A DNA stretch of 64,000 bases from GCF_053078305.1 NZ_CP166879.1; one strand, 5' to 3'. Shown: positions 21,112 to 61,438, counted from the stretch's first letter. The notes: a model not told the origin generated them from the sequence alone. Numbers and translations are program-made.

Positions 21112-21960
21112 ATGTATACCCTGAACTGGCAGCCGCCGTATGACTGGTCGTGGATGTTGGGATTTCTCGCCGCCCGTGCAGTGAGTGGTGTGGAAACGGT
21201 CGCGGACAGTTATTATGCCCGTAGTCTGGCGGTGGGCGAATATCGCGGCGTGGTGACTGCTATTCCGGATATAGCCCGCCATACTCTGCACATAAATTTA
21301 AGTGCAGATTTAGAACCCGTTGCCGCTGAGTGTCTGGCGAAAATGAGCCGCCTGCTTGATCTGCAATGTAACCCGCAGATTGTTAACGGTGCGTTGGGCA
21401 AGTTAGGCGCGGCGCGGCCCGGATTGCGTTTACCCGGCAGTGTTGATGCTTTTGAGCAGGGCGTGCGGGCGATTTTAGGCCAACTGGTGAGCGTGGCGAT
21501 GGCGGCAAAATTGACCGCCAGAGTGGCACAGCTTTATGGCGAACGGCTGGATGATTTTCCGGAGTATATCTGCTTCCCCACGCCTCAGCGGCTGGCAGCA
21601 GCCGACCCGCAGGCATTAAAAGCGTTAGGCATGCCGTTGAAACGGGCAGAGGCACTGATTCATCTGGCAAATGCGGCGCTGGAGGGCAGCTTACCAATGA
21701 CAATTCCGGGCGATGTGGAGCAGGCGATGAAAACGCTGCAAACTTTTCCGGGTATCGGGCGCTGGACGGCGAATTATTTCGCCTTGCGCGGCTGGCAGGC
21801 GAAAGATGTTTTCCTGCCGGATGATTATCTGATTAAACAGCGATTTCCGGGAATGACACCGGCACAAATCCGCCGTTATGCCGAGCGCTGGAAGCCCTGG
21901 CGTTCTTATGCGCTGTTGCATATCTGGTATACGGAAGGCTGGCAGCCAGACGAAGCATGA
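21112..21960 (+). CDS. alkA: 3-methyladenine DNA glycosylase II AlkA
   Basis: 282 aa from MYTLNWQPPYDWSWMLGFLAARAVS...; ORF-track frame starts at 21082. Confidence 0.9.
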   Translation: MYTLNWQPPYDWSWMLGFLAARAVSGVETVADSYYARSLAVGEYRGVVTAIPDIARHTLHINLSADLEPVAAECLAKMSRLLDLQCNPQIVNGALGKLGAARPGLRLPGSVDAFEQGVRAILGQLVSVAMAAKLTARVAQLYGERLDDFPEYICFPTPQRLAAADPQALKALGMPLKRAEALIHLANAALEGSLPMTIPGDVEQAMKTLQTFPGIGRWTANYFALRGWQAKDVFLPDDYLIKQRFPGMTPAQIRRYAERWKPWRSYALLHIWYTEGWQPDEA

Positions 21961-29335: not shown

Positions 29336-30301
29336 TCACACCTCGTACTCCATCTCGCCATCCTTACGCAGCGGTATAATCTGCACCTTCTGCACGCGAT
29401 GGCTTTCTACCTGCAACGTTTTAAGCAAATAATCCCCCACCTGAACTTCTTCGCCAGGTTTTGGAATACGCTGCAAATATTCCATCAACAGCCCGGCAAT
29501 GGTGTGATATTCACGTTTTTCATCCAGCGGCAGCGGCACATATTGCACCAGATCCTCCAGCGGCATATGACCATTCGCCGTCCAGGAACCGTCCGCATTC
29601 TTCTGAATATCATGGCGGGCGTCGATCTCTTCCACTTCGTTCGGTAAGTTACCGGCAATGGTTTCAGTGACGTCACTTAATGTCACAATCCCTTCCACCG
29701 AGCCAAACTCATCCACCACAAAAGCAAAGTGCGTGCGGGCATTACGGAACTGCTCCAGGGCAGGTAACAACGGCAAGGTTTCCGGGAACACCAGCGGCTG
29801 GCGAATCAACACCCGCAGGTTGAGCGGTTCGCCACGCAGAGACTGTTGTAGCAGGTCGATAACGTGAACAACACCGAGCAAATCTTCTGCGTCATCGCCA
29901 TCAGTAACCACCAGCCGCGTATGCTGATTTCGCTCCAGTAACTGGCGGATCTCGTCTTCCGGCGCGTTGAGATCGATATGCTCAATATCGTGGCGCGACG
30001 TCATAATGCTGCTGACGGTACGCTGGTTAAGATTAAGTACCCGCTCAATCATCCGCCGTTCCTGCGGATTAAAGATCTGCTGGTTACCATGATCCACCAG
30101 CATGGACGCGGTTTCGGCGTCCAGTTCCGCATCTTCTTTTTGCCCGCTAAGCAGGCGCATTACCGCTTCGGTAGTCCGCTGGCGCAGCGTCTGGTTAGCG
30201 GAAAGAAAACGTCGCCGGTTAAAGATAGCCAACTGATTGAGCGCCTCGATCATCACCGAGAAACCAATAGCAGCGTACAGGTAGCCTTTCGGAATGACGA
30301 A
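29336..30301 (-). pseudogene. yegH: yegH (TerC-CBS-CorC membrane protein) 3' fragment, truncated by prophage insertion
   Basis: Frame encodes ...GFVIPKGYLYAAIGFSVMIEALNQ... through C-terminus (~321 aa); upstream of 30301 the frame hits a stop and sequence becomes AT-rich prophage-end DNA. Confidence 0.8.
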
Positions 30302-30429
30302 TATAGCGCGGCGATTTTTTTGATACCGATTTGCATTTCATTTGATACCGCTGAAAAACGCCGATACGCAACTTATTTGATACTAAATCGGCGCTTTTCT
30401 TTTGAGTTTTAGAATGAGTTTTTAAGCGC
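30302..30429. promoter_or_regulatory. prophage terminal region with iterated TTGATACCG-like motifs (candidate transposase-binding end repeats)
   Basis: TTGATACCG at 30322 and 30343, CCGATACGC at ~30361, TTGATACT at ~30385, spaced ~21 bp. Confidence 0.45.
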
Positions 30430-31167
30430 TCATTCACTCTCTTTCAAACCAGTTTTAACTGTTTGTGGTTTTGGGTAAGGCTGGACTTTGAATAGCTTTG
30501 TGTTGAGGCGTTTTCTGGCCCTCTTGTTCAGAAACCGGATGTAACGAAACTGTCGGAACTTATGCACACTGGCTCTGTCGATATTAGCCCTCAGATGTTC
30601 ACCTCGTTGTCCGCCTCGTTTAATGGCATTCCTGCAAATCTCGTGATACCACTCGCCATCAAGTTCATAGAATGTTGATTCATGGCTGCCTACATAATCA
30701 AAATTGCTTGCCTGATACACGACACCAAGACAGCCACAACGCTCATCTGCAAACGACTGAACCCACTGTACCTGCGGATAAAGATGCCTGATTAGCTTGA
30801 GCGCGTAACTGATTGCCCTTGATTCGGAGTTTCTCGGCATACAGTCATGCATCCATAGCCGGTTAAGCTCCATATATTCTCGGTTCTGCGTACCCGTTAC
30901 GACGCGTGCACCACTGTTTGGGTTAAGGGCGTAACCCCATTGCATTACGCCAACAAGTTCCCGTTCTGAAAATATACCCAGATGAAGGTAGGAATTATTT
31001 ACGAAACGGTGGCTGTAATGTTTATTGACGATAACCAGTCTGGCCAGCCAGCAACTTATTGTCTCAACCCGCAACTCACGGGAGCCATAACCAACGATAT
31101 TGTCGTTATAGCGAATAAGTTCAGGCGTGCTGATGATTCGGGATGTGACTTGCTTTCTGTTCCCCAC
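30430..31167 (-). CDS. mom: Mom-like DNA modification protein (call by position and operon context; GTG start)
   Basis: 245-aa ORF last before prophage end, overlapping upstream com-like gene as in Mu com-mom; sequence identity to Mu Mom not verified. Confidence 0.55.
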
Positions 31168-31321
31168 GACAGGATTTCCTTGTGTATGTGGGGTGCTCTG
31201 TGGCGCTCGGAGATGTGATTTGATTGAGGGTTTTACAGCGCGGACATTTTACTTCCAGATAACTGAAACTGGCCCGTGCCAGTAGCTTATTGCAGTGTCG
31301 GCACCGTATGTTTCGATACAT
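31121..31321 (-). CDS. com: Com-like zinc-finger translational activator (66 aa from internal ATG)
   Basis: [32 protein letters not shown]... resembles Mu Com (C-x2-C...C-x2-C); AGGAGG upstream. Confidence 0.7.
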
Positions 31322-31368
31322 GGCCGCATAACCTCCTGCTTTGTTGTTGATGTCTTTCTCATGCAATC

Positions 31369-31542
31369 GATCGACAAAAACGATCGATTCGATTTGTTTA
31401 ATTGATACAACAAATAGATTGAAAAGTCATCAATAATGATTCAGGGAGGTGATTATTTACTTAAAGAAAACGAAGAGTTAGGTGGTGAAAATGATCATAA
31501 AATGATCATTTTATTGACTTTTTATACAGTGAAGGTAGGATC
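31369..31542. promoter_or_regulatory. GATC-rich region upstream of com-mom (5 GATC in ~175 bp), candidate Dam/OxyR-controlled promoter
   Basis: GATC at 31369, 31382, 31493, 31504, 31539; 10-bp inverted repeat ATGTAGTATG/CATACTACAT at ~31550-31588. Confidence 0.4.
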
Positions 31543-31730
31543 GCGCGTATATGTAGTATGTTTCAAATCAATGGGATACTACATACATAAAGGGCGACCC
31601 AGATAGCGCGAACTATTCTGGGCCGATTTAGACAATTTTGCATCAATGCTTTACTTCGAGCTCGTGGCGTATCCTATGATATTCCCCGGTCTCCTGTAAA
31701 GCAGAGATGCATAAAAAGGAGATCTTTATC

Positions 31731-31901
31731 ATGGATAAAGAGCCTGTTTGCCCTGCCTGTAAGACTCCCTTACAGCTCATCTATCGCCGTTCTCGATCTC
31801 AAAATGGCAAGACATACAAACCAAAAAATGCTTCCTGTTTCAGGATGCTGATATGTCCTGCCTGTTCTCCCCGGAGGGAAAATACACAAAACGTGCATTA
31901 A
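31731..31901 (+). CDS. small zinc-ribbon protein (56 aa), opposite strand to surrounding phage genes
   Basis: AAAGGAG RBS 7 nt upstream of ATG; MDKEPVCPACKTPL...LICPACSP. Confidence 0.35.
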   Translation: MDKEPVCPACKTPLQLIYRRSRSQNGKTYKPKNASCFRMLICPACSPRRENTQNVH

Positions 31902-31939
31902 CAAATTCACCCGGCAGGGAAACCTGCCGGTCGGTATTG

Positions 31940-32185
31940 TTACATCATAGTACCGTCAGTTCCGGGCTGAACCGGCTCTGGTTGCTCTACGGGTTGAGGC
32001 TCATTTTCCGTGCTGTTTTCAGCCGGAGAACGACCAACCATTCGGGCCAGCACTTCATCAACATATGCGTCGATTTGTGCCTCAAAATCCTTGCGAACCT
32101 GCGCCTTCAGCACGCGGTTCACTTCTTCAGAATAAAGTGCCTGTTTGACAAGCTCTTCAGTAACCGTGCCTTTAATCTCTGGCAT
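31940..32185 (-). CDS. hypothetical 81-aa acidic protein
   Basis: ORF-track entry; no recognisable motif. Confidence 0.4.
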   Translation of the reverse strand: MPEIKGTVTEELVKQALYSEEVNRVLKAQVRKDFEAQIDAYVDEVLARMVGRSPAENSTENEPQPVEQPEPVQPGTDGTMM

Positions 32186-32220
32186 GAATATTCTCCTTTC
32201 CTTTTCTGGTTCACAAAAAA

Positions 32221-32400
32221 TTAAATCTGACCGGAGTCTTTCGGCTGCGGCATTACAGCACCGCTTTTTATCTTTTCCTCGGCAGCTGCATCAATTTTAT
32301 TTCGAAAATAATTGCGAATAATTTTATAACCACCGCTGACAAGCAACAGACAACAAACCACCGTGCAGAAATACAGCAGGCAGACGTTTATATATGTCAT
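32221..32400 (-). CDS. hypothetical small hydrophobic protein (59 aa)
   Basis: My own translation (under 60 aa, not in ORF track): MTYINVCLLYFCTVVCCLLLVSGGYKIIRNYF...; GTGAGG RBS upstream. Confidence 0.3.
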   Translation of the reverse strand: MTYINVCLLYFCTVVCCLLLVSGGYKIIRNYFRNKIDAAAEEKIKSGAVMPQPKDSGQI

Positions 32401-32457
32401 ATAAGCCTCACTCTTATTAACTGATGTTACAGCCGGATAAATTCCCGGCCGTCACGA

Positions 32458-34515
32458 TTATGCCGCAGGGGTATTAACCTCAAGGACAACGCTCTCAAAA
32501 GACACGCCATAAGTTGCCCCTTTGGTGACATCTGTCAGTGTCAGCGTATCTTTGGCAGGGGAAAGTGCATCTTTCACCATCTGGAATGCCTGGCCCGGAG
32601 TGCCATCCAGCACAGGCGTTACCTGGGCACTTCCCGCAGTAAACTTCAGGACAAGTGTATGCCACTGGTTATTGTAGGCTCCAAATGATCCCAGTTTCGT
32701 ATTCCCCCCTGTTTTATGGTGCATCAGATTTAACTGGCCGCCTGTTGTCTGGAGATAATACGCCATCAGGAACGGTGTGCCTGTACCACTCATGGTTACA
32801 CCTTCCGGGACCGTATCGGTGTGGAGGTAAATACCCAGAGCAAACTGGCCTTCTTTTACTTCACCTGACAGACGGAATTTACAGGTCAACTGACCACCAT
32901 GCTTCAGAAGTTCACCGGCTGCATCAGTTCCATGGGTAAGCGTCCAGGTTTTTCCGCTTTGTTTGGATACGGTCAACGCTTTACCTTCGTCCGTCAGCTG
33001 GATTGTACCATCTGTAATTTTCCATCCCTGAGCCGGGGCTTCCCCTGCTGATGCTTTAAGTGAAAGCAGCGTACGGAGTGACGGGGATGTCGGCTGGGGG
33101 GACTCACTGCTTCCTGGCTGACTACCTGTCGGAGCTTCCGGTTTTCCACCCGGCGCGGGCTGAGGCAGGGCTTCACCATCAGGGGCCACACCGGCAATAA
33201 ATGCAGAGGTCAGACCTGCATATTTAAGAATTGCTGATGCAAAACGATCTGAGACCAGAAAACGGCGCGCCCAGGAGCTAAAATGGGTTGCCCTGGATGC
33301 TGTTGTCCAGTTGCCATCTCCCCGTGATTCCGCACCATAATACCCGGCAGAAGCGATATCCGGGTCGTGCTCCGGCAGGTTGGTCGCGGTTTTATTACCG
33401 AACTCATCGTGCATCAGTGGAACAAAGTGAATGTTCTCGGAAGCCCGGTTTTTATATCCGCTATAAATGGTTTCATATGCCGCCGGGTTCTTCTCTTTCC
33501 AGTCATAGGTTGTGTCACCACATAACCACGGCACACTGTCTGATGAACCACCAATACACTGACCGGAGAAAGCACCAAGATCCGCACGGAATTTTTTCAC
33601 CATCGCAGTAAACTGGGCACCATGCTGGGCCGGGGTCGCTTTAAGGTCTCCTTCCCCCTGAATCCATACGACAGATAACAGCACATTCTTTGGATTCGCC
33701 TCAAGTGCCGCTTTCGTTCGACTGACAAGATCCTGATACAGTGGGGTATCCACTCCCCAGCGTAGTGACGCCTCGGCTGCACCACTTGCCGGATCGAATG
33801 AGCCAACTGCGCCGGTTGTAAAAGCAGAGCCGCCACGGGCACAGGGAACCAGTAAAATCCCGGCATCAGCAGGAATCACCGGTAATACTTTTTTCGCAAT
33901 ATGAAGTCCCTGACCCACACAACCATACTGCCCTTTTTTCAGGTCTGCTTTTGGATGGTTCAGCAGACTCATATTCTGAACATCATGAAGGCAGTGATCT
34001 GCTGGAATGATTTCATTGTATTTGCAGGGAATACCCCCGGGGGTTTGTGTATTCCTGCGTGCCAGCTGCATAATACGTGGATCAGGACGATCATAAGAAT
34101 CCGGCAGGGGCAACCCTTCACCATAAGATGAAGCATTGGACTGACCGGCTATAACAATCACGTAATACCAGGAAGGGGAGCTGGAAGCCGTTTCATTTCC
34201 TGCCGGACGGGTATGTGTGTCAGCATTATCCCAGTCTGACGGTTCAGCAGTACCGGCAACATCAGCACTTAACGGAATGACAGCACCAATACCCGCTCCG
34301 GTAATTTCCACGTTCGGATCACCGGATACTGGCCTTACCCACAGGCAATCCCGTGTATTAAAACTGATGAGACAGTCAGCAAATGTCATTCCTCCTTTCG
34401 TTTCAGCCGGAGGAAAGGGAGCCTCAAGAAATGCCGCTGTACCACCGGAAACTTTAACGGTAAAGTTTCCGGGCATTGATGATAGTTGAACCCATTTGGA
34501 CGTCATAATATTCAT
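32458..34515 (-). CDS. SGNH/SASA-family carbohydrate esterase, NanS-p-like (putative sialate O-acetylesterase) with C-terminal lectin-like domain
   Basis: 685-aa ORF; VIVIAGQSNASSYGEG (GQSN block I), CARGGSAF, IQGEGD, DGNW...H blocks; Pro/Ser linker then beta-rich C-terminus. Confidence 0.55.
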   Translation of the reverse strand: MNIMTSKWVQLSSMPGNFTVKVSGGTAAFLEAPFPPAETKGGMTFADCLISFNTRDCLWVRPVSGDPNVEITGAGIGAVIPLSADVAGTAEPSDWDNADTHTRPAGNETASSSPSWYYVIVIAGQSNASSYGEGLPLPDSYDRPDPRIMQLARRNTQTPGGIPCKYNEIIPADHCLHDVQNMSLLNHPKADLKKGQYGCVGQGLHIAKKVLPVIPADAGILLVPCARGGSAFTTGAVGSFDPASGAAEASLRWGVDTPLYQDLVSRTKAALEANPKNVLLSVVWIQGEGDLKATPAQHGAQFTAMVKKFRADLGAFSGQCIGGSSDSVPWLCGDTTYDWKEKNPAAYETIYSGYKNRASENIHFVPLMHDEFGNKTATNLPEHDPDIASAGYYGAESRGDGNWTTASRATHFSSWARRFLVSDRFASAILKYAGLTSAFIAGVAPDGEALPQPAPGGKPEAPTGSQPGSSESPQPTSPSLRTLLSLKASAGEAPAQGWKITDGTIQLTDEGKALTVSKQSGKTWTLTHGTDAAGELLKHGGQLTCKFRLSGEVKEGQFALGIYLHTDTVPEGVTMSGTGTPFLMAYYLQTTGGQLNLMHHKTGGNTKLGSFGAYNNQWHTLVLKFTAGSAQVTPVLDGTPGQAFQMVKDALSPAKDTLTLTDVTKGATYGVSFESVVLEVNTPAA

Positions 34516-34910: not shown

Positions 34911-34996
34911 GTAAGCGTAAACTGACCGCCGTATGTAGCCATTAAGCCAGTATTGGTAACGTAGGTGCCCACCTTTTCAACTAGTGGACACCTGTT

Positions 34997-35422
34997 ATGG
35001 AACAGAAAATATTATCCTCAGAACCCCGCAGATCATTTTCAAATGAGTTTAAACTTCAAATGGTTAAACTGGCTTCACAACCAGGAGCCTCTGTTGCCCG
35101 TATTGCCCGGGAACACGATATCAATGATAACCTCCTGTTCAAATGGCTCAGGCTCTGGCAGAACGAAGGGCGTATATCGCGGCGTCTTCCGGTAACAACC
35201 TCTTCTGGCGCTGGCGTTGAATTATTACCTGTTGAGATAACGCCTGATGAGCAGAAAGAGCCTGTGGCGGCTCTTACTCCGCTTTTATCCACTCCTTCAC
35301 AAAGCACAGTCAGTGCCAGTTCCTGTAAAGTTGAGTTCCGCCACGGTAACATGACGCTGGAAAATCCTTCACCAGAGCTGCTCACGGTGTTGATCCGTGA
35401 ACTGACCGGGAGGGGACGATGA
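34997..35422 (+). CDS. tnpA: IS66 family accessory protein TnpA (orf1)
   Basis: 141-aa ORF with HTH-like N-terminus. Confidence 0.85.
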   Translation: MEQKILSSEPRRSFSNEFKLQMVKLASQPGASVARIAREHDINDNLLFKWLRLWQNEGRISRRLPVTTSSGAGVELLPVEITPDEQKEPVAALTPLLSTPSQSTVSASSCKVEFRHGNMTLENPSPELLTVLIRELTGRGR

Positions 35423-35769
35423 TCTCGCTCCCATCAGGCACTCGAATCTGGCTGGTTGCCGGCGTTACTGATATGCGTAAATCCTTCAACGGTCTGGGAG
35501 AACAGGTACAACATGTGCTGGATGAGAACCCCTTCTCCGGTCACCTGTTTATCTTTCGCGGCCGACGGGGTGACACGATTAAAATTCTGTGGGCTGATGC
35601 TGATGGTCTGTGCCTGTTCACCAAACGTCTGGAGGAAGGCCAGTTTATCTGGCCTGCGGTGCGTGACGGTAAGGTATCCATTACCCGCTCGCAGCTGGCA
35701 ATGCTCCTCGATAAACTGGACTGGCGTCAGCCCAAAACATCCCGCCTTAATGCACTGACAATGTTGTAA
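35419..35769 (+). CDS. tnpB: IS66 family protein TnpB (orf2)
   Basis: 116-aa ORF MISLPSGTRIWLVAGVTDMRKSFNGL...; 4-bp overlap with orf1. Confidence 0.9.
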   Translation: MISLPSGTRIWLVAGVTDMRKSFNGLGEQVQHVLDENPFSGHLFIFRGRRGDTIKILWADADGLCLFTKRLEEGQFIWPAVRDGKVSITRSQLAMLLDKLDWRQPKTSRLNALTML

Positions 35770-35799
35770 AAATGTCATGGCCGGATTATAAAAACGGTC

Positions 35800-37413
35800 A
35801 TGAGTCGGAAATACCTCATTCGTATCACTGAGCTGGAAAGGCTGCTCTCTGAGCAGGCTGAAGCCCTCCGTCAGAAAGATCAGCAACTGAGTCTGGTTGA
35901 AGAGACGGAGGCCTTCCTGCGCTCTGCACTGGCACGTGCCGAGGAAAAGATCGAAGAGGAGGAGCGGGAAATAGAACATCTGAGGGCCCAGATAGAAAAA
36001 CTGCGCCGGATGTTGTTCGGTACCCGTTCTGAAAAACTGCAGCGTGAGGTTGAACAGGCTGAGGCCCAACTGAAACAACGCGAACAGGAAAGCGATCGTT
36101 ACAGTGGGCGTGAGGATGACCCGCAGGTTCCCCGCCAGTTGCGACAGTCACGTCATCGTCGTCCGTTACCGGCACATCTTCCCCGTGAAATACACCGTCT
36201 GGAGCCTGAAGAAAGTTGTTGCCCGGAGTGTGGCAGTGAGCTGGATTATCTGGGGGAAGTCAGTGCTGAGCAGCTGGAACTGGTGAGTAGCGCCCTGAAA
36301 GTGATCCGCACTGTTCGGGTAAAAAAAGCCTGTACAAAATGTGACTGTATAGTTGAAGCGCCAGCGCCGTCCCGCCCGATAGAGCGCGGCATCGCGGGCT
36401 CCGGATTACTTGCCCGCGTGTTAACGGGAAAATACTGCGAACACCTGCCACTGTATCGTCAGAGTGAAATCTTTGCCCGCCAGGGCATCGAACTGAGCCG
36501 GGCATTACTCTCCAACTGGGTTGACGCATGTTGTCAGTTAATGACTCTGCTGAATGATACCCTGTACCGTTACGTGATGAACACCCGCAAGGTTCACACT
36601 GACGACACACCAGTAAAAGTGCTGGCAGCGGGCAGAAAAAAGGCAAAAACAGGACGCATCTGGACGTATGTCCGGGATGACCGGAATGCGGGCTCATCAG
36701 AGCCACCGGCGGTCTGGTTCGCCTACTCACCAGACAGGCAGGGAAAACATCCGGTACAACACCTTCGTCCCTTCCGGGGTATCCTGCAGGCGGATGCGTT
36801 CAGCGGTTACGATCGGCTGTTCAGTGCAGAACGTGAAGGTGGTGCACTGACAGAAGTTGCGTGCTGGGCCCATGCCCGGCGAAAAATCCACGATGTATAC
36901 ATCAGCAGCAAAAGTGCGACGGCAGAAGAAGCCCTGAAGCGAATCAGTGAACTGTACGCCATCGAGGATGAAATACGGGGATTACCGGAGTCAGAGCGTC
37001 TTGCCGTCAGGCAGCAGCGAAGCAAAGTGTTACTGACGTCACTGCATGAATGGATGGTGGAGAAGAATGGTACGCTGTCGAAAAAATCCAGACTGGGCGA
37101 AGCGTTCAGCTATGTACTGAATCAGTGGGATGCCCTCTGTTATTACAGTGATGACGGTCTGGCGGAGGCGGATAATAATGCTGCGGAAAGAGCGCTTCGT
37201 GCAGTCTGTCTCGGAAAGAAAAACTTTATGTTCTTTGGCAGCGATCACGGCGGCGAGCGTGGAGCACTGTTGTACGGGCTGATCGGCACCTGCCGTCTGA
37301 ACGGTATCGATCCGGAAGCGTATCTGCGCCATATCCTGAGCGTACTGCCAGAATGGCCTTCCAACCGAGTTGATGAACTCCTGCCATGGAACGTAGTACT
37401 CACCAATAAATAA
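35800..37413 (+). CDS. tnpC: IS66 family transposase TnpC (orf3)
   Basis: 537-aa ORF with leucine-zipper N-terminus, CxxC zinc motifs and DDE-type core. Confidence 0.9.
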   Translation: MSRKYLIRITELERLLSEQAEALRQKDQQLSLVEETEAFLRSALARAEEKIEEEEREIEHLRAQIEKLRRMLFGTRSEKLQREVEQAEAQLKQREQESDRYSGREDDPQVPRQLRQSRHRRPLPAHLPREIHRLEPEESCCPECGSELDYLGEVSAEQLELVSSALKVIRTVRVKKACTKCDCIVEAPAPSRPIERGIAGSGLLARVLTGKYCEHLPLYRQSEIFARQGIELSRALLSNWVDACCQLMTLLNDTLYRYVMNTRKVHTDDTPVKVLAAGRKKAKTGRIWTYVRDDRNAGSSEPPAVWFAYSPDRQGKHPVQHLRPFRGILQADAFSGYDRLFSAEREGGALTEVACWAHARRKIHDVYISSKSATAEEALKRISELYAIEDEIRGLPESERLAVRQQRSKVLLTSLHEWMVEKNGTLSKKSRLGEAFSYVLNQWDALCYYSDDGLAEADNNAAERALRAVCLGKKNFMFFGSDHGGERGALLYGLIGTCRLNGIDPEAYLRHILSVLPEWPSNRVDELLPWNVVLTNK

Positions 37414-37443
37414 GCGTCAATACGGTGCTCCGTTGACGCTTAC

Positions 37444-37759: not shown

Positions 37760-37785
37760 ATACCTGAAACCTCGGTTTACGGGAA
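37760..37785 (-). promoter_or_regulatory. gix-like recombination site (invertase crossover site), gin-proximal
   Basis: Minus-strand TTCCCGTAAACCGAGGTTTCAGGTAT vs recalled Mu gix TTCCTGTAAACCGAGGTTTTGGATAA (21/26). Confidence 0.6.
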
Positions 37786-38154
37786 ACGGTAAACAGGGCT
37801 GCAAATGCCCTGCCATCGAATGGTACAGCCGTAGCGGCAAACAAGCTGTCTGCGGCACGTAAAATTAACGGTGTTGCGTTCGATGGCACAAAGGACATCA
37901 CTATTACATCCGGGATGACCCAGTCTACAGCAGACGGCAGATATGTTCGTAATGTGCAACTTGGTGCTCAGAGCCGCCACTCTCCTGCGGGTAATGAAGT
38001 CACCTGGGATTATAAAACGCCAGCAGGTTGTATGCTTTCTGGTATTCATGTGCAGGATACCGGCTCCCGGTCTGCGGATAATATCGGTGGGGTCTATTAT
38101 CGCCCGGTTCAGATTTATATTAATAATGCCTGGAGAACGGTAAGTTCAGTGTAA
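37768..38154 (+). other. silent alternative tail-fibre C-terminal cassette (Sv'-like), no own start codon
   Basis: Frame open from 37768: NLGLRETVNRAANALPSNGTAVAANKLSAARKINGVAFDGTKDITITSGMTQSTADGRYV..., paralogous to C-terminus of the 38790..39677 fibre. Confidence 0.6.
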
Positions 38155-38188
38155 ACCACAGAAAAGGGTGCTGAATGCACCCTCTGAA

Positions 38189-38710
38189 TTATTCCGGTTT
38201 TTCCGGCCAGGAAATCGCCAGGTAATGTCTCTCGCTGGCAATATCATTAAGGTGCATTTCTTTAAGCTGTCGGATATACGCCATCCAGCGCGTCAGCTTT
38301 AATTTATTTTCATCGCTAATCATGTCCAGTTTTAGTTCTGTTTTCCAGTCATCCACGGTTCCGTTGGCCTCCTGGAGCAGCGATGAACGGCGATTTTCAG
38401 CAACCGTATTCCAGTTTACCGGCACCTTTGATATCAGGCCATCAGAAAACTGCCAGTTACCGTCAATATTCACACCTTCCGGCAGTTGGTCCACTTCAAC
38501 AACAGTAAAACCCGCCGGATATAAAGCAGAGACATCTTCAGCAACAGAGCAGATAATACCCGTTACAGGCGAAATACAGAGTTTGTATTTCTTTGTGAAA
38601 AGCGGGATAGATTCATAAAAATCCCTTCCGTCCTCACTCTGGAAATACTGAACATTCTCACCATAGGGTTTGTGTTCTGGGTAATATCGTTTTACGTTAA
38701 TAAGCTCCAT
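38189..38710 (-). CDS. tail fibre assembly protein (Tfa/U-like), 173 aa from MELINVK
   Basis: ORF-track frame 38189..38821; AAGGTGA RBS before ATG at 38710. Confidence 0.75.
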   Translation of the reverse strand: MELINVKRYYPEHKPYGENVQYFQSEDGRDFYESIPLFTKKYKLCISPVTGIICSVAEDVSALYPAGFTVVEVDQLPEGVNIDGNWQFSDGLISKVPVNWNTVAENRRSSLLQEANGTVDDWKTELKLDMISDENKLKLTRWMAYIRQLKEMHLNDIASERHYLAISWPEKPE

Positions 38711-38789
38711 TATTTCACCTTGTTTTTGTTGAAAAGACAAAATCATCATATATTTATTCAGATAATCTGTTTTTTGAACTACTGCACTT

Positions 38790-39677
38790 TTATGCGCTGG
38801 AAGCTGTTTTCCACGAACCATTTATCAGAAACTGAACAGGTCGATAATATGCGGTTACCGTCGCATTACCATCACCAGCGACATCAAGCCCTGTAAGTAC
38901 GCATCCGTCAGGAACTTCAAAAATATTATATTGCATTCCAATCGTTGACCTTGAACCTCTTCGAATGCTTTGAACATAACGTGAGTCAGCCACAGACTGC
39001 GTCATCCCCGATGTAATATTTATATCCTTCGTTCCGTCGAAAGGAACCCCATTAATATTTACTGGGGTGGCGAGTTTATTCGCTGCCACGGCGGTTCCAC
39101 CCGATGGCAGGGCATCAGCAGCCTTATTTACCGTTTCCCGTAAACCGACGTTATCGATAAAGGTTCCTTTGTCCGGGATATCCGCGCCATTCTGGTCCCT
39201 GCGCAGATAACGCGCATCGCCTTCTCCCTTACTGTAAACATCAAGATTCAGACGAGCCGTCGGTTTATCCGGTACATCGTCAAAATTCCGGGATTTCTCC
39301 AGTGCTCCCACATCAGCAGCAGCCAGGCTGTCTTTTCCTGATAATCCTCCCAGCCCCAGATGACGGCGGGCAGCAGCCTGTGCTTCTGCACCTGCATCCG
39401 CAATCTCCTTAAGGTTGTTTTTCCGGCTGTATGCGTTTGCTGCAATGATTGCCTTAATGGCTGTCACCAGCTGGTTCAGTTTTGCCTTATCCGGCTGAAC
39501 CTTTCCTTCTGTCAGAATGGCAAGCAGCTCTGCCTGCACGATGTTCAGCCAGTCCTGACCGATATAGCTGATCCCTTTGCGTCCGTCACCTTCAGTAAAC
39601 CATTTAACCTGCGTACCCTGAGAGGGGGCCAGTGGTGGCATATCGGTCACACCTGAATTGTTGTCGACAAAATACAT
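38790..39677 (-). CDS. tail fibre protein (S-like; constant N-terminal part plus currently expressed variable C-terminus)
   Basis: 295-aa ORF; C-terminal third is paralogous to the plus-strand cassette; gix-like site inside at the constant/variable junction. Confidence 0.8.
   Translation of the reverse strand: MYFVDNNSGVTDMPPLAPSQGTQVKWFTEGDGRKGISYIGQDWLNIVQAELLAILTEGKVQPDKAKLNQLVTAIKAIIAANAYSRKNNLKEIADAGAEAQAAARRHLGLGGLSGKDSLAAADVGALEKSRNFDDVPDKPTARLNLDVYSKGEGDARYLRRDQNGADIPDKGTFIDNVGLRETVNKAADALPSGGTAVAANKLATPVNINGVPFDGTKDINITSGMTQSVADSRYVQSIRRGSRSTIGMQYNIFEVPDGCVLTGLDVAGDGNATVTAYYRPVQFLINGSWKTASSA
39135..39160 (+). promoter_or_regulatory. gix-like recombination site inside tail-fibre gene
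   Basis: TTCCCGTAAACCGACGTTATCGATAA; inverted relative to site at 37760-37785. Confidence 0.6.
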
Positions 39678-53041: not shown

Positions 53042-53216
53042 ACCGGCAGCATAAGCCGGGAATTTTCAGGGCGGGTTTTGCGGGATTTCAGGAAGTATTT
53101 TCAGGGAAAAATGCAAAGGCGCTTCACGCAGATTTTAAAGCCCGTTAAATACAGGTTAGAAAATCACGACACGCGCCTGAAGGGGGTAAGGTAATGCATT
53201 TGCATACCTTAAACAA

Positions 53217-60941: not shown

Positions 60942-61012
60942 TGTTACGCTGTCTCATGATGTTCTCTGAGTCAGCGTAACGGTGAAGGAGAGGCGGCAGG
61001 CTTTGCGGAATA

Positions 61013-61438
61013 TCAGAAAAGTGGCGGTTGCGTTCTTGCCAGATGCAGACGGCGCTGTTCACGTATGACGGTATAAATCTGGGTTTCTGACATCCGGTAA
61101 TGGCGGCGAAGGGATTCAATCTTCTCGCCCCGGTCCCAGCGCGAAAATATCTCATTGTTTCGCAGCTCGGCAAAGAGAGATTCCCCGACCGGCAGGTAAT
61201 AACCCCGTCCGCCCATATAGGCTGCCTGAGCCGCAGCCACCTTGCGTGCCAGTTTACCGGCCAGTACCGGCTCAATCCCCTGACGCTGAAGTTCTGCGCC
61301 GGTGACTTCAACCAGTTCTGACAGGGTCCGCGGCCAGTTCTTTTTGAGAACATCATCAGGGATGTCATCAAGGCGGTCGATAAGGGCGTGCAGTTGCTCA
61401 CTGTCACCACCAAACATGCTCATCTGAGTTTCTGCCAT
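61013..61438 (-). CDS. Mor/C-family transcription activator (middle/late operon regulator)
   Basis: 141-aa ORF with C-terminal HTH; located between early genes and lysis genes. Confidence 0.8.
   Translation of the reverse strand: MAETQMSMFGGDSEQLHALIDRLDDIPDDVLKKNWPRTLSELVEVTGAELQRQGIEPVLAGKLARKVAAAQAAYMGGRGYYLPVGESLFAELRNNEIFSRWDRGEKIESLRRHYRMSETQIYTVIREQRRLHLARTQPPLF

Follow-up and report, generated by a model that had tools for sequence, protein, structure and literature searches.

The window analysed here, a stretch of 64,000 nucleotides (nt) from NZ_CP166879.1 (GCF_053078305.1), very probably carries the com-mom DNA modification operon of an Sp18-type Mu-like Escherichia coli prophage inserted in yegH, with the Mom/Com/OxyR mechanism operating as in phage Mu. 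The operon is probably functional. The observations that carry this reading are the identities of the two genes, the catalytic residues of Mom, purifying selection on both genes, two covarying RNA helices at the com-mom junction, and the conservation of a pair of GATC sites upstream of com. An original prediction, made from the sequence alone, had proposed a com-mom-like operon at the extreme end of a prophage and had assigned five GATC sites and a 10-bp inverted repeat upstream of com to Dam-methylation/OxyR control.

Identity and conservation of com and mom

The operon consists of two open reading frames (ORFs) on the minus strand, encoding proteins of 66 and 245 amino acids (aa).

30430..31167, minus strand: mom, 245 aa, GTG start at 31167, stop-proximal end at 30430
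31121..31321, minus strand: com, 66 aa, ATG start, CxxC...CxxC zinc finger
31332..31337, minus strand: com Shine-Dalgarno sequence AGGAGG, 10 nt 5' of the ATG, read from the sequence

As originally predicted, a Com-like zinc-finger ORF overlaps the start of the 245-aa ORF; the overlap comprises the 3'-most 47 nt of com, and the two genes are read in different frames. The GTG is the first start codon past the preceding stop in the mom ORF, and an alternative 81-aa form of com starting at TTG shares its frame with the 66-aa ATG form. The AGGAGG is kept in the relatives L007, L008, L022, L032, and L033.

The 245-aa protein matched the Pfam family Mom (PF25680) at 1.4e-76, with all 202 model positions (1-202) covered, PHROG 1384 "Mom-like DNA modification protein" at 9.9e-84, and the crystal structure of Mu Mom (PDB ID: 8bv8) at 1.7e-124. 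An NCBIfam search with the protein gave no model match. It is 98% identical to RefSeq WP_009668291.1, "tRNA(Gly)-dependent adenine aminoacyltransferase Mom", and the alignment to phage Mu Mom, which had been proposed as a check, gave 79% identity over 233 aa. The residues on which Mom activity depends have been reported as W48, H58, Y59, R111, S124, D149, R151, Y159, and W181 (PMC13219725, 2026), in a numbering that equals that of AF083977 plus 10 because it starts at an ATG ten codons upstream of the GenBank start. With this offset corrected, all nine residues are identical in the window Mom. The same study describes a helix-turn-helix-like insertion at about residues 175-209 of Mom (PMC13219725), and this insertion aligns between the window protein and Mu Mom without a gap.

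The 66-aa protein matched Pfam PF10122 (Zn_ribbon_Com) at 2.2e-12 and PHROG 13819 "gpCom" at 7.8e-13, and is 98% identical to RefSeq WP_001443803.1, named "Com family". Its identity to Mu Com is 47%, with all four zinc-binding cysteine residues aligned: Cys-7, Cys-10, Cys-26, and Cys-29 correspond to Cys-6, Cys-9, Cys-26, and Cys-29 of Mu Com. The protein thus has the N-terminal zinc finger of the type CxxC-X16-CxxC that marks the Com family. Judged by these sequence matches, the identities of both ORFs clearly exceed chance.

Ratios of nonsynonymous to synonymous substitution rates (dN/dS) were calculated for both genes with the overlap region excluded. For mom the ratio was 0.065 against L022; for com it was 0.044 against L022 and 0.06-0.09 against L032 and L033. 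Both genes are under strong purifying selection (dN/dS 0.04-0.09).

Position at the prophage's right end

The element that carries the operon is an Sp18-type Mu-like transposable prophage of E. coli, inserted in yegH. Its right end was located by comparison of four independent insertions, which share the boundary: host yegH is found at 30301, and prophage sequence begins at 30302 with TATAGCGCGGCG.

30302..30383, no strand: prophage right end, boundary common to four independent insertion sites
30311-30326, 30333-30348, and 30368-30383, no strand: three TTTGATAC-containing repeats of ~16-22 bp

The three TTTGATAC repeats are presumed to be transposase-binding sites, by analogy with those of Mu. 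The distance from the mom stop to the prophage end is 128 bp, compared with 115 bp in Mu, so that the operon does occupy the extreme prophage end that had been predicted from the position of Mu mom. The RefSeq relative L003 shows the full Mu gene order, from the repressor, Ner-like, A, B, lysis, head, and tail genes to gin, com, and mom. Colinear with L003, the window prophage shows the features of a Mu-like element, namely the gene order, the DDE transposase A together with B, insertion sites that differ between genomes, and mom as the rightmost gene. Members of this prophage family occupy many different chromosomal sites in ~200-230 of 5,426 complete E. coli genomes, implying recent transposition. 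The exact yegH insertion of the window was found in none of these 5,426 genomes.

The com-mom junction: Com target and inhibitory stem

The Com protein of Mu binds a short hairpin that lies immediately 5' of a "translation inhibition structure", the stem of which includes the GUG start of mom; the native target is the 19-mer GAAUGCCUGCGAGCAUCCC, and the recognised loop motif is CC(N)2-3GAG (PMC6483171). Folding the com-mom junction, as the original prediction had proposed, revealed both a Com-binding hairpin and a stem that buries the start codon.

31193..31206, minus strand: Com target hairpin, stem 31206-31203 / 31196-31193, loop CACAGA
31162..31193, minus strand: translation-inhibition stem-loop, CCCCAC (31193-31188) pairing with GUGGGG (31167-31162)

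The window RNA GAGCGCCACAGAGCACCCC aligns base for base with the Mu target and carries CC-ACA-GAG. The hairpin, GCGC-CACAGA-GCAC, is located within the 3' end of com, directly 5' of the inhibitory stem, which contains the mom GUG start and has a Shine-Dalgarno-like AAGGAAA stretch in its loop. The inhibitory stem is present in the minimum free energy and centroid folds of the window RNA and the Mu RNA alike.

Covariation was assessed in 13 distinct alignable com-mom junctions, obtained from 80 Mom loci on viral contigs. Each of the four stem pairs of the Com hairpin has changed on both sides (AUGC/GCAU in Mu, for instance, against GCAC/GUGC in L037 and GCGU/ACGC in L034), and 97% of the cells are paired. 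Neither any of 500 column shuffles nor any slid register reached the observed values. In the inhibitory stem 100% of the cells are paired, and the closing pair is U:A in seven of the junctions and C:G in the other six. In the more distant relatives L075, L076, and L079, a GCC-N-GAGC hairpin could be seen by eye, and after it a stem that covers either the start codon or the Shine-Dalgarno sequence. Because base 31193 is both the outer base of the Com hairpin and the closing base of the inhibitory stem, the two helices compete for it, which would be in keeping with the published view that the inhibitory stem is loosened when Com binds.

The conserved GATC pair upstream of com

Five GATC sites are found within 174 bp upstream of com, in agreement with the ~175 bp originally given.

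31369, 31382, 31493, 31504, and 31539 (starts), no strand: five GATC sites in 174 bp
31369-31372 and 31382-31385, no strand: conserved GATC pair, 13 bp apart, palindrome AATCGATCG-N7-CGATCGATT
31365-31373 / 31381-31389, no strand: 9-bp inverted repeat at the proximal GATC pair

The density of these sites is not unusual: GATC occurs 274 times in the window, where 258 +/- 15 occurrences are expected, and a count of five per 175 bp is reached in three further stretches. Because the total lies within expectation and such stretches recur, density was rejected as evidence. What exceeds chance is the conservation of the sites and not their density. The proximal pair, located 51 and 64 nt upstream of the com ATG, is homologous to sites 2 and 3 of Mu (ATCAATTAAA...TCGATCG-N-GATCGATT in the alignment), and the 13-bp interval recurs in all the distinct relatives belonging to this lineage as well as in Mu-type loci. 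Of the 44 distinct sequences compared upstream of com, 42 retain two or more GATC sites that are 13 and/or 18 bp apart, and three spacing classes can be discerned: 18 + 13 bp (Mu type), 18 bp only, and 13 bp only, the class of the present lineage.

The sequence of the pair, ATCGTTTTTGTCGAT, was compared by hand with the OxyR half-site consensus ATAGnTnnnAnCTAT taken from PMC2909390. Of the 10 specified positions it matches 7, as many as the corresponding Mu sequence does; a second half-site matches 6 of 10 and is unconvincing. In the P22 gtr system, two GATC sites 13 bp apart within one OxyR half-site render OxyR binding sensitive to methylation (PMC2909390). From these likenesses, Dam/OxyR gating at the candidate half-site can reasonably be inferred.

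A search was also made for late-gene control signals in the window. One Mor/C-family activator gene is present, at 61013..61438, and its product is 39% identical to C and 27% to Mor; Mu has two such activators. The upstream regions of lys and of the protease gene I share a motif, ATYCCGCAAARCCYGCC-N16-TAYGCT (53070-53086 and 60995-61011, minus strand), which is a candidate late-promoter signature unlike the CCATAACCCC of Mu. Two -10 candidates picked by hand upstream of com, AAAGAC and TAAACA, were weak and not conserved and are not claimed.

The distal GATC sites belong to a divergent unit

The three distal GATC sites and the inverted repeat coincide with a promoter and leader that face away from com.

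31488..31542, plus strand: distal GATC sites and sigma70-like promoter, TTGACT (31514-31519) - 16 nt - TAGGAT (31536-31541)
31488-31498 / 31502-31512, no strand: 11-bp inverted repeat carrying GATC 31493 and 31504
31550-31559 / 31576-31585, plus strand: perfect 10-bp inverted repeat, TATGTAGTAT/ATACTACATA, first leader hairpin
31731..31901, plus strand: small zinc-ribbon ORF, 56 aa, CxxC...CxxC

The -10 hexamer of this promoter overlaps GATC 31539, and the palindrome carrying GATC 31493 and 31504 abuts the -35 hexamer. The promoter hexamers are kept in L032 (-10 TAAGAT) and L033 (-10 TATAAT). The leader of ~180 nt ends at the ATG (31731) of the 56-aa ORF and folds with z = -3.7 (0 of 200 shuffles). 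An RNAalifold consensus of seven leader variants has three hairpins, the second with compensatory changes at several pairs and the third with G:U pairs that would be mismatches on the opposite strand. L092, L095, and L097 carry the leader module as a tandem duplicate, and the gene that follows it in L097 is a different one. In L007 and L022, the closest com-mom relatives (Mom 96-98% identical), similarity to the window extends no further than ~95 nt upstream of com; the proximal GATC pair is the only one kept, and the distal region is replaced by unrelated sequence. Together, the conserved plus-strand promoter, the leader hairpin, and the absence of the region from L007 and L022 assign the three distal GATC sites and the 10-bp inverted repeat to this divergent neighbouring unit and not to com-mom. 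The predicted Dam/OxyR control region of the operon is accordingly reduced to the two com-proximal sites, the homologues of Mu sites 2 and 3; the sites beyond them and the repeat, which was found as described, drop out of it.

The 56-aa zinc-ribbon ORF has no PHROG, NCBIfam, or Pfam family, and in a large protein database its only matches were four near-identical unnamed E. coli proteins. An Rfam scan of 30250-32300 gave no meaningful match. The Prokaryotic Genome Annotation Pipeline (PGAP) labels 31436..31901 as a frameshifted pseudogene. A promoter-like sequence on the minus strand, TTTACA-18-TAGGAT at 31671-31700, faces com from ~350 nt upstream, and its hexamers are kept in L032 and L033. 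It could drive an RNA antisense to the plus-strand leader, or a long-leader com-mom transcript.

Alternative explanations

Several observations weigh against a com-mom operon that works as in Mu, and most of them concern transcription. In the alignment, the first GATC site of Mu and its C-binding site TTATgccccaATAA (TTAT-N6-ATAA) are absent upstream of com, and the T6 spacer and TAAGAT -10 hexamer of Mu have no counterpart there. The distance from the last GATC to the com ATG is ~51 nt compared with ~78 nt in Mu, ~27 nt shorter. A promoter scan found no sigma70-like promoter between the GATC pair and com; the motif ATYCCGCAAARCCYGCC, present at lys and I only, was not found upstream of com within three mismatches; and the stretch from the GATC pair to com is the least conserved of the region among close relatives. 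At the junction, the Com hairpin of the window copy has one C.A mismatch, and single-sequence folds were no better than shuffles (z = 0.03 and -1.1), which is why covariation was relied on instead. In addition, both hairpins lie within the com coding sequence, and part of their conservation may be due to coding constraint.

Four other explanations of the region were weighed against the preferred one. It is quite improbable that com-mom has a single extended Dam/OxyR control region made up of the five GATC sites together with the 10-bp inverted repeat. The sites do share 174 bp of DNA upstream of com, and OxyR or another protein could also bind the distal palindromes, but the divergence of L007 and L022 ~95 nt upstream of com, with retention of the proximal pair only, argues against it. 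So do the plus-strand promoter conserved in L032 and L033 on which the distal sites lie, the identity of the inverted repeat with hairpin 1 of a leader module that precedes a different gene in L097, and the recurrence of the same GATC density three more times in the window. Transcription of com-mom from the minus-strand TTTACA-18-TAGGAT (31700..31671) with a ~340-nt leader, the GATC pair then serving as an OxyR roadblock within the transcribed DNA as in agn43, whereas in Mu the sites lie upstream of the promoter, is rather unlikely. This sequence is the sole sigma70-like minus-strand match in the 600 bp upstream of com, both of its hexamers are kept in L032 and L033, the interval from it to com contains no strong intrinsic terminator, and a proximal promoter cannot be recognised. 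The match is, however, 9 of 12 with an 18-nt spacer, two such matches were found against 3.6 expected by shuffle, and the conservation of the hexamers can be explained by their position in hairpin 3 of the plus-strand leader. Moreover, L007 and L022 lack the region and still have an intact com-mom under purifying selection.

The absent signals might also mean that com-mom is a silent relic in a decaying prophage, its coding sequences intact, its promoter and activator site lost, and no DNA modified. The lack of a recognisable promoter or C site, the loss of GATC site 1, and the IS66 element within the gin homologue of this copy are in line with such decay, which is nevertheless very improbable: both genes show dN/dS of 0.04-0.09, Mom has lost none of its catalytic residues, the spread of the prophage family over many E. 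coli sites implies recent transposition, Sp18 was judged intact (PMC2669165), and the Mu mom promoter is likewise non-consensus and activator-dependent (PMC3378877). Finally, it is unlikely that mom control has been rewired in the Sp18 lineage, such that, with the C site and the first GATC gone, Dam/OxyR became the main gate as in agn43 and gtr and Mom is possibly bistable in lysogens. If it has, the GATC pair, 51-64 nt from com, would lie within or just downstream of the promoter used; Mom expression could be epigenetically bistable instead of strictly late-lytic; and a coupling to the divergent unit with its structured leader and small zinc-ribbon gene would be possible.

Proposed mechanism

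The preferred explanation remains the mechanism known from Mu, from which the chemistry, the binding of Com, and the binding of OxyR are inferred. Mu Mom is a GNAT-fold enzyme that transfers glycine from Gly-tRNA(Gly) to N6 of adenine at SAS sites in double-stranded DNA, and the adduct rearranges to N6-carbamoylmethyl-adenine (PMC13219725). By analogy, the window Mom would introduce the same adenine modification into the phage DNA. Phage DNA that carries N6-carbamoylmethyl-adenine resists many restriction enzymes.

Translation of mom would be blocked by default, with its GUG start paired in the inhibitory stem-loop, until Com, the product of the upstream ORF that overlaps mom, attaches to the neighbouring hairpin (CC-N3-GAG) and the mom start site opens. 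As in Mu, the GATC pair at 31369/31382 would be bound by OxyR when unmethylated, and methylation by Dam would keep OxyR off it. Transcription of com-mom is on this analogy most likely gated by the host through OxyR and Dam.

Comparison with known systems

The Mu operon (AF083977, com-mom at 35693-36602) has the same two genes in the same order, with an out-of-frame overlap of 50 nt compared with 47 nt here, and likewise adjoins the right end of the phage genome. Its GUG start is likewise buried, in a CCCAC/GUGGG stem, it has the same Com hairpin and motif, and its GATC sites 2 and 3 have the same 13-bp spacing. On the other hand, the upstream neighbour of com in Mu is gin, whereas in the window ~3.3 kb of cargo (DUF6645, DUF1378, DUF826, and the divergent small unit) lies between them.

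Over com-mom and the neighbouring sequence, the prophage Sp18 of E. coli O157:H7 Sakai and its relatives in other Shiga toxin-producing E. coli (STEC) share 98-99% DNA identity with the window. Homologues of Mom and of its regulators have been described at the equivalent position in Sp18 (PMC3299994), which has also been judged an intact Mu-like prophage, as noted above. The window copy differs in its insertion in yegH, which none of the 5,426 genomes has, and in the IS66 element within its gin homologue. In FluMu, Pnm1, and Haemophilus influenzae biotype aegyptius, too, the right end of a Mu-like prophage carries a gene for DNA adenine modification downstream of one for a Com-family zinc finger (PMC3299994); the products of hin1523 (FluMu), nma1821 (Pnm1), and hia5 (aegyptius) are, however, an unrelated non-specific N6-adenine methyltransferase, whereas the window has a true Mom. 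The Dam/OxyR epigenetic switches of agn43 and P22 gtr have GATC sites lying inside an OxyR half-site; each gtr half-site contains two, 13 bp apart as in the window. Those systems govern phase variation of host surface structures from defined promoters, and the likeness of the window to them is the GATC pair in a candidate half-site.

The com-mom operon is already known, and the apparent departures from Mu are confined to the transcriptional control region. In ~200 complete E. coli genomes, proteins 98% identical to these already bear the names Mom and Com in RefSeq; many other database records still label Mom "hypothetical protein". The RefSeq name "DNA-binding transcriptional regulator" for Com is a misnomer, Com being an RNA-binding translational activator. 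The main value of the present analysis is correct annotation. The DNA of the lysogen's Mu-like prophage, once packaged, should be protected from many restriction systems, which helps such phages to move between STEC and other strains. Two modest by-products, which leave the known working of com-mom unchanged, come from the comparison of loci: the Com hairpin and the start-codon stem covary across Mu-like phages, and within the control region conservation is highest at the GATC pair, with promoter and activator sites varying by lineage.

Other features of the prophage and its surroundings

The left part of the window is presumably E. coli chromosome, from baeSR and mdtABCD on to asmA, as read from ORF sizes and order. 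The gene yegH is interrupted by the prophage, and its 3' part only (29336..30256, 306 codons) is found on this side of the insertion. The left end of the prophage and the target duplication fall outside the window, and a 5-bp target duplication was not found between the two flanks of relative L003. The right end reads 5'-TATAGCGCGG, so that the transferred strand would end ...CTATA-3', compared with CA-3' in Mu. L003 has a RefSeq feature "tRNA-OTHER" at 21773-21852 between the G and F homologues, which would map near 53.7 kb of the window; an ARAGORN search of 30000-64000 found no tRNA or transfer-messenger RNA.

An IS66-family element at 34911-37440, with tnpA (34997..35422), tnpB (35419..35769), and the transposase gene (35800..37413), interrupts the gin-like recombinase gene in its middle, and comparison with L003 points to a duplication of ~9 bp. 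Tail-fibre inversion is probably disabled in this prophage copy by the element in the gin homologue. The invertible tail-fibre segment, 37768-39155, has the orientation opposite to that in L003. Between gin and com, the minus-strand cargo block at 31940-34515, which is without counterpart in Mu, holds the DUF6645, DUF1378, and DUF826 genes, families typical of lambdoid and Stx prophages. The DUF6645 protein has 685 aa, belongs to PHROG 143, and carries a GQSN esterase-like motif.

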